Positions 772 through 7,424 of a DNA stretch of 7,424 nucleotides are shown here, one piece after another. Under the pieces are notes generated by a model. It saw only the letters and a program-made list of their open reading frames with translations, was not told where the DNA came from and did not search any database. The stretch's first letter is position 1, and every line of letters begins with the position of its first letter. The position numbers and the translations under genes are program-made. Origin of the DNA: a virus (lineage: Duplodnaviria > Heunggongvirae > Uroviricota > Caudoviricetes). The stretch lies in IMG/VR virus record IMGVR_UViG_2645728091_000002, positions 1 through 7,424 of that record; one strand, 5' to 3'.

Positions 772-828
772 ATGTAAGTATTTCCTTAACAAATAAGAAG
801 TTATACGCACCAACTGATGCGCGTTGTA

Positions 829-872
829 TTCCCGCATTTCGGCGGGAATGAGGACCATGACTGTTAAAGAGC
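829..872 (-). promoter_or_regulatory. nutR: boxA (862-872, GCTCTTTAACA on minus strand) and boxB hairpin (829-848, TTCCCGCCGAAATGCGGGAA on minus strand)
   Basis: boxA matches the boxA consensus (CGCTCTT-A type). boxB is a stem CCCGC/GCGGG around a purine-rich loop. The same boxA (11/11) and boxB core recur at nutL (1960-2000) with near-identical spacing. Confidence 0.7.
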
Positions 873-879
873 AATTTGC

Positions 880-1065
880 TTATGCCGCTTTGCGATAAGC
901 ACTTTCTTGATACTTCAGGGCGCCAGCTGTAACGACTTCCAGTCGATAGGCGTCTTTCTCTGGGATGACTTCCTTCCACTGAGAGACTGCTGCATCGCTA
1001 ATGCCTAACGCTTTAGCTACCGCACGCTGGGTTCCGAAGTGGTCGATAACATCTTTCTTGTACAT
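880..1065 (-). CDS. cro: Cro repressor, P22-type (61 aa)
   Basis: MYKKDVIDHFGTQRAVAKALGISDAAVSQWKEVIPEKDAYRLEVVTAGALKYQESAYRKAA matches P22 Cro as I recall it. GGAG lies 7 nt upstream of the ATG on the minus strand. It is divergent from the repressor gene across an operator region. Confidence 0.9.
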   Translation of the reverse strand: MYKKDVIDHFGTQRAVAKALGISDAAVSQWKEVIPEKDAYRLEVVTAGALKYQESAYRKAA

Positions 1066-1145
1066 AGACTCGCTCCGAAATTAAAGAACACTTAAATCAT
1101 CTGTCAAAGGAATCTTAAGTCAAGTTTATTTAAGATATCTTAACT
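1066..1145. promoter_or_regulatory. OR operator region with divergent pR (minus strand, towards cro) and pRM (plus strand, towards c2)
   Basis: Contains ATTTAAG/CTTAAAT-type half-sites: aattaaagaacacttaaat (1079-1097) and the 14-bp palindrome ttaagatatcttaa (1130-1143). Minus-strand -35 TTGACA is the complement of 1102-1107, with an A/T-rich -10 candidate about 17 bp downstream. The c2 ATG at 1146 has essentially no leader or Shine-Dalgarno, as in the lambda cI/pRM arrangement. Confidence 0.7.
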
Positions 1146-1796
1146 ATGAATACACAACTGATGGGTGAGCGTATTCGCGCTCGCAGAAAAGAACTCAAGA
1201 TTAGGCAGGCTGCCCTTGGCAAGATGGTTGGCGTGTCTAATGTTGCTATTTCCCAATGGGAGCGTTCTGAAACTGAGCCCAATGGCGAAAACCTATTGGC
1301 CTTAGCCAAGGCTTTGCAGTGTTCCCCTGATTACTTGTTGAAAGGAGAAGATAGTCTTTCAAACATTGCCTATCACAGCAGGCATGATCCAAGAGGTTCG
1401 TATCCTCTAATTAGTTGGGTAAGCGCAGGATGTTGGATGGAAGCTGTAGAGCCATATCATAAGCGTGCAATAGATAACTGGTACGATACAACCGTAGATT
1501 GTTCAGAAGATTCGTTTTGGCTGGACGTAAAAGGTGATTCGATGACGGCTCCAGCCGGTCTTAGCATCCCTGAAGGGATGATAATACTCGTCGATCCTGA
1601 AGTAGAACCTCGTAATGGGAAGCTGGTAGTGGCAAAGCTCGAAGGAGAAAACGAGGCAACTTTCAAGAAGTTAGTTATTGATGCTGGCAGGAGGTTTCTA
1701 AAACCACTTAACCCACAATATCCGATGATTGAGATCAACGGGAACTGCAAAATCATCGGTGTAGTTGTCGATGCAAAAATAGCAAACCTTCCATAA
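1146..1796 (+). CDS. c2: Prophage repressor, P22 C2-type (216 aa), LexA-like S24 autopeptidase C-terminal domain
   Basis: MNTQLMGERIRARRKELKIRQAALGKMVGVSNVAISQWERSE… is an HTH_3-type N-terminal domain and matches P22 C2 as I recall it. It has an Ala94-Gly95 cleavage site (VSAGCW), a GDSM serine motif (S132) and FKKL lysine (K174/K175), consistent with RecA-stimulated self-cleavage. Confidence 0.92.
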   Translation: MNTQLMGERIRARRKELKIRQAALGKMVGVSNVAISQWERSETEPNGENLLALAKALQCSPDYLLKGEDSLSNIAYHSRHDPRGSYPLISWVSAGCWMEAVEPYHKRAIDNWYDTTVDCSEDSFWLDVKGDSMTAPAGLSIPEGMIILVDPEVEPRNGKLVVAKLEGENEATFKKLVIDAGRRFLKPLNPQYPMIEINGNCKIIGVVVDAKIANLP

Positions 1797-1820
1797 GGGG
1801 CATTCGCCCCTTTTTTCTTT
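1797..1820 (+). terminator. Rho-independent terminator immediately after c2
   Basis: GGGGC(1797-1801)-ATTC-GCCCC(1806-1810) stem-loop followed by TTTTTTCTTT. Confidence 0.75.
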
Positions 1821-1854
1821 CCTTTAAAAATCAAAGCAAAACTTAAGCCCTGCA

Positions 1855-1925
1855 ATAAAATTTAAGTTTTCTTCAAAAACACTCTTGACCACAAATTAAA
1901 GAAATCTTAAATTTAAGTCATCAGC
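1855..1925 (+). promoter_or_regulatory. OL operators and pL promoter (leftward early promoter, + strand in this window)
   Basis: -35 TTGACC (1885-1890), 17-bp spacer, -10 TAAATT (1908-1913). Operator-like repeat aattaaagaaatcttaaat (1894-1912) matches the OR copy at 17/19 positions. Further ATTTAAG half-sites at 1860-1866 and 1911-1917. Confidence 0.7.
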
Positions 1926-1959
1926 AGGACGCTGGTAGCCAAACGGAACAGATTGGCAG

Positions 1960-2000
1960 GCTCTTTAACATTGATGGGATTGTCCCGCCGAAATGCGGGA
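1960..2000 (+). promoter_or_regulatory. nutL: boxA GCTCTTTAACA (1960-1970) and boxB hairpin TCCCGCCGAAATGCGGGA (1983-2000)
   Basis: Same boxA and boxB as nutR on the opposite strand. Located between pL and the N-like gene, as expected for an N-utilisation site. Confidence 0.7.
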
Positions 2001-2114
2001 ACCAAAGAGTAGTTGGCTTTGGGGTGATGTGAAGTGCAGCCGCGCGACAGCATCAGGGAATTAACCTCCCACCCCCCGTCACGTCACCGCTAAAGTCAAT
2101 CATCGGAGGTCAAC

Positions 2115-2414
2115 ATGACAGTAGTCATTACATATCTGGCTGACGATAACGCCAGAAATCGCCGCAGAGCACGCAGACAGGCTCAACGTGAACAGGCAAT
2201 GCAAGAGCAGCGACTGGCGCGAAAGATTGCGCTAAAGCTCTCTGGTTGCGTCAGAGCAGATAAAGCAGCATCACTCGGAAGCCTTCGCTGCCAGAAGGCA
2301 GAAGAAGTCGAGCGTAAACAGAACCGTATTTACTACAGCAAGCCACGCAGTGAAATGGGTGTGACTTGTGTTGGTCGCCAGAAAATGAAATTAGGCAGCA
2401 AACCACTTATTTGA
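2115..2414 (+). CDS. N: N-family transcription antiterminator (99 aa) with an atypical arginine-rich motif
   Basis: C-terminal two-thirds (…LARKIALKLSGCVRADKAASLGSLRC…ERKQNRIYYSKPRSEMGVTCVGRQKMKLGSKPLI) parallels the lambda N C-terminus (ERKNQRTWYSKPGERGITCSGRQKIKGKSIPLI) and the phage 21 N body as I recall them. The N-terminal ARM is DNARNRRRARRQAQREQ. GGAGG lies 5 nt upstream of the ATG. It is the first gene downstream of pL/nutL. Confidence 0.85.
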   Translation: MTVVITYLADDNARNRRRARRQAQREQAMQEQRLARKIALKLSGCVRADKAASLGSLRCQKAEEVERKQNRIYYSKPRSEMGVTCVGRQKMKLGSKPLI

Positions 2415-2959: not shown

Positions 2960-3021
2960 GGAGCAATGTCGCTCGTAACTAAACAGGAGCCGACTTGTTC
3001 TGATTATTGGAAATCTTCTTT

Positions 3022-3048
3022 GCCCTCCAGTGTGAGGGCGATTTTTTA
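3022..3048 (+). terminator. Rho-independent terminator just upstream of the ea10-like gene
   Basis: GCCCTC(3022-3027)-CAGTGT-GAGGGC(3034-3039) stem followed by GATTTTTTA. Confidence 0.7.
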
Positions 3049-3436: not shown

Positions 3437-3460
3437 GTGCGGTTTTACCGCATACCAATA

Positions 3461-3482
3461 ACGCTTCACTCGAGGCGTTTTT
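3461..3482 (+). terminator. Putative terminator or RNA structure upstream of the cIII ribosome-binding site
   Basis: ACGCTTC(3461-3467)-ACTC-GAGGCGT(3472-3478), a 7-bp stem with one G·U, followed by TTTTTCGTT. Could also be part of the cIII leader structures known to modulate cIII translation in lambda. Confidence 0.45.
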
Positions 3483-3508
3483 CGTTATGTATAAATAAGG
3501 AGCACACC

Positions 3509-3673
3509 ATGCAATATGCCATTGCAGGGTGGCCTGTTGCTGGCTGCCCTTCCGAATCTTTACTTGAACGAATCACCCGTAAATTACGTGACGGATGGAA
3601 ACGCCTTATCGACATACTTAATCAGCCAGGAGTCCCAAAGAATGGATCAAACACTTATGGCTATCCAGACTAA
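3509..3673 (+). CDS. cIII: CIII (54 aa), inhibitor of FtsH-mediated CII degradation
   Basis: [54 protein letters not shown] matches lambda CIII as I recall it. AAGGAG lies 6 nt upstream of the ATG at 3509. The 78-aa ORF in the track is an in-frame upstream over-extension. Confidence 0.92.
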   Translation: MQYAIAGWPVAGCPSESLLERITRKLRDGWKRLIDILNQPGVPKNGSNTYGYPD

Positions 3674-6789: not shown

Positions 6790-7320
6790 TCATTCAGTAT
6801 CATCACGCGCGGTCTGTGCATATGTTACTACCGCACCTAATGTATTAATTTTCTTTTCAACATAGATAATATTATCGTACTCATAATTGCCATACGGATA
6901 GCAAATGCGAATATTCTCATGTAGATCGGGGTCATCCACCTCAGCTCCAGAACAACTTTTTGAACTACCGGAAGTATACCGATACGGTGCAACATAAGAC
7001 GATGTCTCTCCAGGCAAAAAATAAGTTAGTGTTGTAAGGGGTATAATCAGAAAAAATCCAGCAAATATGCACATCCCTGCATAAACCTTAAGGTATGCTG
7101 ACAGACTCTTCCAGCCGCTTTGTTTTACTATCCCCTTCTTAACCCAAAACAGAGATAACAGAAAAGCTATTCCCATGCTAAACAGAATGTAATAGTGGGA
7201 TATACTCTGATTAAGAAACGTGACCCTGTAAATATCTGCCCGCCACCAGAAGAAAAGGAAAATAAAGATCAGGCCTGAAACTGTCATGCAAATCAAATAA
7301 GGATACGAATCTTTTTTCAT
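6790..7320 (-). CDS. A+T-rich accessory (moron-like) membrane protein, 176 aa, three predicted TM helices plus a Cys-containing C-terminal soluble domain; function unknown
   Basis: Long uninterrupted ORF in strongly A+T-rich DNA, where chance ORFs are disfavoured. Lys-rich N-terminus MKKDSYPY followed by hydrophobic segments LICMTVSGLIFIFLFFWW, YYILFSMGIAFLLSLFWV and VYAGMCIFAGFFLIIPLTTLTYFL. Convergent with the pL operon. Its start codon is 9 bp from the IS10-type end. Confidence 0.7.
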   Translation of the reverse strand: MKKDSYPYLICMTVSGLIFIFLFFWWRADIYRVTFLNQSISHYYILFSMGIAFLLSLFWVKKGIVKQSGWKSLSAYLKVYAGMCIFAGFFLIIPLTTLTYFLPGETSSYVAPYRYTSGSSKSCSGAEVDDPDLHENIRICYPYGNYEYDNIIYVEKKINTLGAVVTYAQTARDDTE

Positions 7321-7328
7321 GTTTAGCG

Positions 7329-7424
7329 CTGATGAATCCCCTAATGATTTTTATCAAAATCATTAAGTTAAGGTAGATACACATCTTGTCATATGATCAA
7401 ATGGTTTCGCCAAAAATCAATAAT
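7329..7424 (+). mobile_element. Outside end of an IS10-type element (Tn10 family); element continues beyond the window, transposase gene expected on the + strand just past 7424
   Basis: CTGATGAATCCCCTAATGATTTTTATCAAAATCATTAAGTTAAGGTAGATACACATCTTGTCATATGATCAAATGGTTTCGCCAAAAATCAATAAT matches the IS10 outside-end sequence as I recall it, including the terminal CTGATGAATCCCC, the near-palindrome around AATGATTTT…AAAATCATT and the TTAAGTTAAGG IHF-site region. Flanking 9 bp TGTTTAGCG (7320-7328) resembles the IS10 target consensus NGCTNAGCN. Confidence 0.85.

Follow-up and report, generated by a model that had tools for sequence, protein, structure and literature searches.

A probable HK620/CUS-3-type N/nut antitermination module in which the arginine-rich motif of N and boxB are inherited together

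The N–boxB pairs of phages lambda, P22 and 21 are standard tools and textbook models of peptide–RNA recognition. In phage 21 the boxB hexaloop folds into a GNRA-like turn beside a flanking C-C pair (PMC12550061; NMR structure PDB 1NYB), and the loop of P22 reads GACAA and extrudes one C (PMC12550061). For HK620 (GenBank AF335538, 2001), the sequence record carries nutL and nutR as putative N-utilisation sites. When the locus studied here was compared with this record, boxA, spacer and boxB proved identical at both nut sites, and residues 1–56 of N were essentially identical, the whole arginine-rich motif (ARM) included. The same ARM/nut pair is present in CUS-3, HK140, HK630, mEpX2, mEp213, N7 and IME10. 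At the level of sequence, the combination of ARM, nutL and nutR is already known, its nut sites having been annotated as putative since 2001, and the novelty implied by a preliminary description of this DNA has to be given up, given its occurrence in HK620, CUS-3 and many other sequenced phages. Alignment with sequenced lambdoid phages, which that description had proposed, led to a pair known by sequence and annotation; in these two respects the identity with a characterised pair that it had named as refuting does occur, and no functional characterisation was found. Literature searches covering boxB, ARM, lambdoid, P22-like, HK620 and CUS-3 returned no study of binding, antitermination or orthogonality in the HK620-type class, though this class may have been discussed earlier, and string searches with the ARM (NRRRARRQ, RNRRRARR) and with boxB in DNA and RNA spelling returned no paper. 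The literature matches consisted of general N/Nus papers and of genome reports claiming a 'novel BoxB specificity' for other phages, such as epsilon34. The mEpimmI system was considered as a precedent and set aside, being a different, non-lambdoid N-like system.

The window, by which we mean the whole analysed stretch of 7,424 nucleotides, very probably contains a lambdoid prophage's module for early antitermination, of the HK620/CUS-3 type, which was first sequenced in HK620, with the ARM of N and boxB forming a specificity pair. As a genome feature such a module is ordinary, being the N/nut module of a common E. coli prophage family. The gene order is cII-cro-(operators)-cI-pL-nutL-N, then cIII, gam, bet and exo, and N opens the pL operon, lying past nutL and beside the immunity region. 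The immunity is of the phage 21/P22 type, with P22/21-type cro, c2 and c1 genes, and is unlike that of HK620, which has a lambda/HK97-like cro and a 434/L-like cI. A consensus scan placed a pR-like promoter (TTGACT-16-GATGAT) for cro, nutR and cII at 1096–1123 on the minus strand, the position of the annotated operator/pR region of phage 21, where identity is ~95–100%. It also placed a pL-like promoter (TTGACC-17-TAAATT) at 1885–1913 on the plus strand, at a place collinear with the pL start annotated for phage 21 and with a predicted start ~40 nt upstream of nutL. Downstream of N, an intrinsic-terminator-like hairpin with a T run was found at 2877–2894 on the plus strand, and further terminator-like sites at 3020–3041 and 3460–3479; the terminator scan gave 9 such sites against 3.4 ± 1.8 in shuffles. 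These three hairpins are candidate tL terminators, to be passed by N-modified polymerase, and comparable positions in HK620 carry the annotated tL1 and tL2A–D. An Rfam scan at a permissive E-value covered the nut sites and boxB with no family, and its significant matches (E < 1e-9) were Lambda_thermo and RNA-OUT only.

The boxB 16-mer CCCGCCGAAATGCGGG occurs exactly twice in the window, at 831–846 on the minus strand and at 1984–1999 on the plus strand, where ~0.01 matches are expected by chance and none of 200 shuffles gave two. The preliminary description, which had placed the two hairpins correctly to within 1–2 nt, was thus right that boxB is identical at nutL and nutR. At nutR the 16-mer is the core of the hairpin AUUCCCGC-CGAAAU-GCGGGAAU (828–849, minus strand; predicted 8-bp stem, −12.5 kcal/mol), and at nutL it lies within UCCCGC-CGAAAU-GCGGGA (1983–2000, plus strand; predicted 6-bp stem); the predicted folds of both hairpins present the same 6-nt loop, CGAAAU. 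BoxA is likewise identical at the two sites, as had been claimed. The sequence GCTCTTTAACA is matched exactly at 862–872 on the minus strand, directly past the cro stop codon, where it equals the annotated boxA-R of phage 21 and that of HK620 nutR, and again at 1960–1970 on the plus strand, where it equals the annotated boxA-L of phage 21. It also agrees with UGCUCUUUAACA, the rrn-type consensus. In the direction of transcription boxA is upstream of its boxB at both sites, with a spacer of 12 nt at nutL and of 13–15 nt at nutR, depending on the number of outer pairs counted. Each early transcript carries one nut in sense orientation, nutL (plus strand) past pL and nutR (minus strand) past pR and cro.

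The minimum free energies of 55-nt segments around the nut sites gave z-scores of −0.6 and −1.3, which are not significant, as is to be expected of so short a hairpin, and the case for structure rests on covariation instead. Across 12 distinct boxBs of the HK620-type class, both-side changes were found at 5 of the 8 stem pairs, and 89.6% of the cells in the alignment of these variants were paired, as against 37–63% in slid registers; the covariation score was reached by none of 500 shuffles. With the stems compensating, the loop positions G, A, A and U were invariant in all 12 variants, and in divergent lineages (Cronobacter, Pantoea, metagenomes) the loop was kept while the stems and the body of N drifted. 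By analogy with described loops, the hexaloop Y-G-N-A-A-U is most likely a true tetraloop of the GNRA type, GAAA, with a non-canonical C•U pair closing it.

N itself is a 99-residue protein, small and for the most part disordered, encoded at 2115–2414 on the plus strand by an open reading frame with a GGAGG ribosome-binding site, and it matches PHROG 271 ('anti-termination protein N-like') over residues 1–98 with E = 1.6e-36. The match to Pfam N_peptide reached 17.5 bits, under the 27.9-bit gathering score, and NCBIfam gave no match for this protein or for N of phage 21, so membership of the N family rests on PHROGs and on homology to the N proteins of phage 21, CUS-3 (97% identical) and lambda. 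The C-terminal body had been described as phage-21/lambda-type, and the alignments bear this out: residues 31–99 are identical to phage-21-type N at 63 of 69 positions, as against only 6 of 30 in residues 1–30, and residues 62–99 align to the C-terminus of lambda N, chain N of PDB 6GOV (…ERKNQRTWYSKP-GERGITCSGRQKIKGKSIPLI), with E = 3.2e-5. A PDB sequence search with the whole of N matched this lambda segment only, and nothing for the ARM. The protein carries a C-terminal segment homologous to the RNA-polymerase-binding segment of lambda N. In the E. coli genome matches listed, PGAP labels N 'hypothetical protein', and some phage records have a spurious CDS placed over nutL; both are annotations that could be fixed.

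The ARM occupies residues 10–30 (DDNARNRRRARRQAQREQAMQ; 2142–2204, plus strand) and follows the register A-x-x-R-x-x-x-R-R of lambda, P22 and phage 21. Read from N it is ADDNARNRRRARRQAQREQAMQ, in agreement with the spelling given earlier, and NARNRRRARR lies in register with DAQTRRRERR of lambda, NAKTRRHERR of P22 and TAKSRYKARR of phage 21. The motif shares 5–7 of 20 in-register positions with these three, which mutually share 7–8 of 20, and it is none of them, as the preliminary description had supposed. Direct comparison also upheld the view that boxB is unlike those of lambda (GCCCUGAAGAAGGGC and GCCCUGAAAAAGGGC) and P22 (nutL, GCGCUGACAAAGCGC), and the boxBs of phage 21 differ as well. 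Among members of the class conservation is higher in the ARM than in the body, with 26–30 of 30 identities in residues 1–30 where the bodies share only 41–58 of 69. The same ARM is joined to an H-19B/P22-type C-terminus in HK620 (…CLPNVAIYAAGYRKSKQLTAR) and in one sampled locus (L004), to the phage 21/lambda-type C-terminus in the window and in CUS-3, and to other C-termini elsewhere. Together with the sharp break in phage 21 identity at codon 34, this supports the suggestion that N is a chimera assembled from modules.

With the ARM …ADDNARNRRRARRQAQREQ… and CCCGC-CGAAAU-GCGGG at both nut sites, the window falls in the HK620/CUS-3-type class. The specificity class of phage 21 (ARM GTAKSRYKARRAELIAERR, the 1NYB peptide, with a CUAACC-type loop) was rejected, as that peptide matches phage 21 N and not the N of the window, and the loop here is CGAAAU. 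The association of ARM and boxB was then followed through 155 non-redundant loci. The 93 loci with NRRRARR had only YGNAAU loops, at both nut sites, the 60 loci with the RYKARR of phage 21 had only CUAAYN loops, and no mixed ARM and loop classes occurred among the 155; because the loci share phylogenetic history, these counts overstate the number of independent events. ARM class and boxB class are strictly co-inherited at both nut sites, and this holds though the immunity region lies between nutR and the other two elements. Intermediate RYRARR ARMs (Phytobacter, Pantoea) go with the 21-like loops CUGACA, CUAACA and CUAAUC. In a reverse search from boxB alone, each boxA-linked copy upstream of an N gene led to an N with an N-R-R-R-x-(R/K)-R ARM. 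A 14-mer scan of viral contigs gave 140 matches, 82 of them without boxA; most of the 140 were due to chance, and the set had to be filtered by boxA linkage. The co-evolved ARM/boxB pair of the preliminary description is in this way supported by natural loci, in which the classes co-segregate without exception, and the comparison suggests that the two specificities have evolved together.

By analogy with the described systems, we infer the binding, the loop fold and the antitermination activity of this N/nut pair. The pL transcript, rightward in the window, and the pR transcript, leftward, would each present a consensus boxA and then the boxB hairpin. The N-terminal arginine-rich helix of N may bind the boxB loop on the nascent RNA, as homology with lambda N suggests, boxA would recruit host NusB/NusE, and the central and C-terminal parts of N would engage NusA and RNA polymerase, contacts that would in turn permit readthrough of the terminators past N and of tR1 past nutR. 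Specificity would be seated in a compact pair, the ARM core N-R-R-R-A-R-R and a boxB with the hexaloop Y-G-N-A-A-U, whose architecture is probably that of phage 21 (C-UAAC-C with a C•C pair, PDB 1NYB) with GAAA replacing UAAC. We tentatively suggest that the HK620-class pair could be a fourth solution to ARM–boxB recognition, in which an aromatic-free RRRARR helix reads a true GAAA tetraloop with a Y•U mismatch as its closing pair and is orthogonal to the pairs of lambda, P22 and phage 21. The mutational path to the phage 21 class might then be short, a change between Arg and Tyr at position 17 of the ARM being coupled to one between G and U at position 2 of the loop, and natural intermediates (RYRARR with CUGACA or CUAACA) may be extant. 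If true, a fourth orthogonal class would provide a new tag for RNA tethering and a tractable case, taken from nature, of a switch in protein–RNA specificity, and would set a widespread class with a plain GNRA loop beside the lambda, P22 and phage 21 models.

A somewhat unlikely alternative keeps the same N/nut system and denies it a private specificity, supposing cross-recognition with lambda and/or P22 boxBs and distinctness from phage 21 only. It arises because there is a plain GAAA in the loop and because the ARM has the RRRxRR core of lambda, in register with the lambda R-R-R-x-R-R. A 2008 study by Cocozaki and colleagues is said, by its title, to find that P22 and lambda boxB requirements overlap. 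A lambda-like core, NRRRERR, is naturally paired with the very same boxB, and the P22 nutR boxB (ACCGC-CGACAAC-GCGGU) approximates the window hairpin plus the one C that is extruded in P22 (PMC12550061). However, the loop is a hexaloop with an invariant flanking Y and U rather than a pentaloop, the Trp of lambda N is absent from the ARM, and no sampled locus pairs an HK620-type boxB with a lambda- or P22-type N, in a sample that was not designed for such cases.

The boundaries of the exchanged segment bear on a second alternative. A sliding identity profile against phage 21 delimits a specificity cassette of boxB-L, the N leader and N codons 1–34 (1971–2215, plus strand), with identity dropping from ~95% to ~50% directly past boxA-L and returning to ~99% at N codon 34. 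The cassette was found in 509 of 5,426 complete E. coli genomes and in 32 phage records; the latter count comes from a DNA search with the cassette, which replaced a tblastn search of phages with the 40-residue N-terminus that gave no match, probably through low-complexity masking. It is improbable, in our judgement, that the ARM–boxB association reflects only the historical linkage of its elements, together with recent gene conversion, in a lineage that is young and successful, instead of selection for a match. This explanation draws on the 96–99% identity of N at most IMG/VR loci, on the identity of the nutL and nutR boxBs in most E. coli members, and on locus L027, where nutR has taken on the nutL spacer and conversion between the two nut sites is therefore suggested. 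On the other hand, among 172 locus records, which include some contigs twice, the HK620-type trio of boxB-R, boxB-L and ARM occurs in 12 of 15 immunity clusters, and in the largest cluster 51 trios are of the phage-21 type and 47 of the HK620 type, unmixed. In addition, the recombination junctions adjoin the boxBs, at the boxA edges, and the Cronobacter, Pantoea and metagenome lineages retain the loop in spite of their drift elsewhere. The three dispersed elements are an unusually clean case of parts kept matched through heavy mosaic recombination. Finally, that the repeated hairpin is a terminator, an RNase III site or a protein operator flanking the immunity region is highly improbable, for although it is a GC-rich inverted repeat at both sides of that region, neither copy has a T run after it or is called by the terminator scan, both lie a fixed 12–15 nt past boxA on the transcribed strand, the identity of the loop goes with the ARM of the N next to it, and the collinear elements of phage 21 and HK620 are annotated nut sites.

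Read as an N/nut module of the HK620/CUS-3 type, the locus can be placed against the three model systems. With phage 21 it shares boxA, and N residues 34–99, cro, the operators and pL are nearly identical; the phage 21 annotation has boxA-L/R, nutL/R and the pL start at places collinear with the window. The boxB loop of phage 21 is also 6 nt long, its first and last positions being pyrimidines round a 4-nt turn, and the ARM of phage 21 keeps the same register, beginning near residue 12 behind an MTV/MVT leader. In contrast, the ARM core is RYKARR in phage 21 and RRRARR in the window, the loop is C-UAAC-C and not C-GAAA-U, and the nutL and nutR stems of phage 21 differ from each other whereas those of the window are identical. 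Lambda (PDB 1QFQ; complex 6GOV) agrees with the window in ARM register and core and in a loop that contains GAAA, but its ARM begins with residue 1 and contains Trp18, its boxB has a pentaloop, GAAGA or GAAAA, on a closing U-A pair, and its boxA is the non-consensus CGCTCTTA. P22 gp24 (PDB 1A4T) has a similar leader (MTVITY, compared with MTVVITY), and the stem and flanks of its nutR boxB, CCGC-C…C-GCGG, closely resemble those of the window, while its ARM core is TRRHERRRK and its C-terminal body is unrelated to that of the N described here.

The window is the early region of a lambdoid prophage. Its minus strand carries the N-terminal part of an O-type replication gene (72-458), cII/c1 (493-771) and a P22-type cro (880-1065), and its plus strand a P22/21-type cI/c2 repressor gene (1146-1796) and N (2115-2414, 99 aa), followed in order by a membrane ORF of unknown function, a DUF2528 gene, cIII, gam, bet and exo. 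The lambda cIII thermoregulator RNA (Rfam RF01804) is matched over its full length at 3496-3554 (+; 88.5 bits), and the match overlaps the start of a cIII-like ORF at 3509-3673. From this arrangement, pL transcription runs rightward and pR leftward; promoter-like hexamers lie at 1885-1913 (+) and 1123-1096 (-), and three intrinsic-terminator-like elements occur 3' of N at 2877, 3020 and 3460. A 149-aa ORF (2423-2872, +) begins 9 nt after N, matches PHROG 3054 (unknown function) with no Pfam match, and holds the place of ral in phage 21, CUS-3 and N7; a terminator-like hairpin comes next (2877-2894). An Rfam RNA-OUT match (61 bits; 7331-7424, -), clipped by the window end, marks an IS10 terminus adjoined by a 176-aa membrane ORF (6790-7320, -; PHROG 1416), so an IS10/Tn10 copy abuts or interrupts the prophage there.

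The preliminary description, which placed an identical boxA and an identical boxB hairpin at nutL and nutR, proved correct, coordinates included. The boxB 16-mer CCCGCCGAAATGCGGG occurs exactly twice in the window, at 1984-1999 (+) and 831-846 (-), where about 0.01 copies are expected by chance, and the boxA sequence GCTCTTTAACA likewise twice, at 1960-1970 (+) and 862-872 (-). In both transcripts the boxA-like element lies 12-15 nt upstream of the hairpin, and folding gave 6 bp at nutL (1983-2000) and 8 bp at nutR (828-849), each around the 6-nt loop CGAAAU. Twelve distinct hairpins from divergent carriers (Cronobacter, Pantoea piersonii, metagenomes and an E. coli lineage with a lambda-like tail) showed that five of eight stem pairs vary on both sides, as when CCGC/GCGG becomes CCAC/GUGG or CCCGC/GCGGG becomes UCCGC/GCGGA. 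Across this set 89.6% of stem cells were paired, against just 37-63% in slid registers, and the covariation score was reached in none of 500 shuffles. In the loop, G2, A4, A5 and U6 are invariant, while position 1 varies between C and U and position 3 between A and U.

We compared N with database-verified sequences of lambda, P22 and phage 21. The protein matches PHROG 271, 'anti-termination protein N-like' (E = 1.6e-36), over its last 38 residues it aligns with lambda N as present in the solved structure of the antitermination complex (6GOV), and it is 97% identical to CUS-3 N and 71% to phage 21 N. Its arginine-rich motif (ARM), NARNRRRARRQAQREQAMQE, shares in register 7 of 20 positions with lambda, 6 with P22 and 5 with phage 21, whereas the lambda, P22 and phage 21 motifs agree among themselves at 7-8 of 20; its sequence thus makes it a fourth ARM type that keeps the shared A-x-x-R-x-x-x-R-R register. 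Against a phage-21-type N, 63 of 69 residues are identical at 31-99 but just 6 of 30 at 1-30. Identity to the annotated phage 21 genome (OL657228), followed in a sliding profile, was ~90-100% over cro, the operators, cI, pL and boxA-L (850-1970), ~50% over boxB-L, the N leader and N codons 1-34 (1971-2215), and ~99% over the N body (2216 to the stop codon); on the nutR side, similarity stops at ~850, between boxA-R and boxB-R. Two junctions thus coincide with the 3' edges of boxA-L and boxA-R, and a third with N codon 34. Elsewhere this ARM precedes different C-termini, namely an H-19B/P22-type tail in HK620 and locus L004 and further variants in N7 and other proteins. Given these sharp junctions and varied C-termini, the earlier characterization of a chimeric N assembled from modules is a fair one. 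The host-constrained boxA may provide a brief stretch of homology, a 'boundary sequence', at which specificity cassettes are swapped. The repressor gene is also mosaic relative to phage 21 (L002), with a 5' half (to ~1500) 97-100% identical and a 3' half (~1510-1780) ~70-90% identical.

That the ARM and boxB form a matched pair, as had been proposed, gains comparative support from natural loci. Among 155 non-redundant loci that encode N, drawn from IMG/VR, GTDB genomes and assemblies, the NRRRARR ARM occurs in 93, and all of these with detectable nut sites have Y-G-N-A-A-U loops (CGAAAU at both nut sites in 85; UGAAAU plus CGUAAU in one). The phage 21 ARM, RYKARR, occurs in 60, every one with CUAAYN loops, and none of the 155 mixes ARM class and loop class. 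Since the loci are related to one another, we also compared the immunity region that separates the two nut sites; in 172 locus records, where some contigs are represented twice, it fell into 15 clusters. The HK620-type trio (NRRRARR with Y-G-N-A-A-U loops at both nut sites) accompanies 12 of the 15, and the largest cluster, of the phage 21/P22 type found in the window, holds 51 records with the phage 21 trio, 47 with the HK620-type trio and no hybrid. Recombination has therefore repeatedly swapped the intervening and surrounding sequence while boxB-R, boxB-L and the ARM remained matched. The reverse search, begun from the boxB 14-mer alone, agreed: wherever a boxA-linked copy lay upstream of an N gene, that N had an N-R-R-R-x-(R/K)-R ARM. 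The ARMs included NRRRAKR (MTIVMTILASDNARNRRRAKRAAEREQ…) and NRRRERR (MTIVVTYLASDTAKNRRRERRAALRDQ…, with a lambda-like core) in the L185-L304 series of loci, downstream of the identical boxB core CCGCCGAAATGCGG, and ARM positions 19 and 20 thus appear free to vary without boxB change. Two loci (Phytobacter ursingii and a Pantoea species) combine the MTVVIT leader of the HK620 class with an RYRARR core like the RYKARR of phage 21, and their loops (CUGACA, CUAACA and CUAAUC) are phage-21-like, which suggests that the Arg/Tyr position of the ARM and the G/U position of the loop change together. Among divergent carriers the ARM is conserved at 26-30 of 30 residues and the body at 41-58 of 69.

Individual loci departed from this layout. 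In locus L027, nutR (-, locus position ~4535) carries the nutL spacer ATTGATGGGATTGT in place of the usual nutR spacer GTCATGGTCCTCAT, which points to gene conversion across the inverted pair of nut sites; such conversion could be why most E. coli members of the HK620 class, but not phage 21 or P22, have identical boxBs at nutL and nutR. Locus L050 (2700-3003) fuses an HK620-type nutL/N cassette, with a single change in boxA (GCACTTTAACA), to lambda-like OL operators TATCTCTGGCGGTGTTGACA, and no HK620-type nutR was found in its 3-kb flank. Locus L063 (2700-3003) has an HK620-type N gene with unrelated sequence right up to the ribosome-binding site and neither nutL nor boxA, which makes this N an orphan lacking its leftward nut site, possibly in a rearranged or defective prophage.

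According to a recent survey of GNRA-like motifs (PMC12550061), the phage 21 CUAACC hexaloop (PDB 1NYB, whose peptide we confirmed to be the phage 21 ARM) sets a GNRA-like turn, UAAC, between the two bases of a non-canonical C-C pair, and the P22 GACAA pentaloop adopts a GNRA fold in which the C is looped out. By analogy with these loops, C-GAAA-U would probably form a true GNRA tetraloop resting on a C•U platform. The P22 nutR boxB in the P22 record (ACCGC-C GACAA C-GCGGU; L092, P22 section E, -, ~2527) is nearly the hairpin of the window and the HK620 type with an extruded C, and its loop is flanked by C•C as in phage 21 boxB; it differs from the P22 nutL boxB (GCGC-UGACAAA-GCGC). Because of this likeness and the predicted GNRA fold, cross-recognition between the HK620-type pair and lambda or P22 N stays a rival to a separate specificity, though a rather unlikely one.

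The cassette (1971-2215) was found in 32 phage records and 509 of 5,426 complete E. coli genomes (~9%); among the RefSeq chromosome matches listed, PGAP labels N a 'hypothetical protein'. In HK630 (L104, 1665-1862), a 'hypothetical protein' CDS is drawn over pL and nutL, an annotation issue. We found no experimental work on HK620-class specificity in the literature searched, which is weak evidence as several key papers lay outside its coverage. What interest remains lies in this common class as a clean set of natural variants in which to study switches in ARM-RNA specificity. The idea of boxB specificity linked to the N terminus is standard, and genome papers of the Casjens group routinely infer 'novel BoxB specificity' from a divergent N terminus, as for epsilon34. 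Comparison with sequenced lambdoid phages showed that HK620 (AF335538, 2001) has an ARM, nutL and nutR identical to those of the window, its record annotating 'putative N-utilization leftward/rightward' sites and an N 'similar to H19B and 21 N', and that in CUS-3 (2007) the same N also ends in the C-terminus seen in the window. The element was therefore already known and annotated, and with an identical pair in HK620, CUS-3 and ~9% of complete E. coli genomes, its novelty is low.
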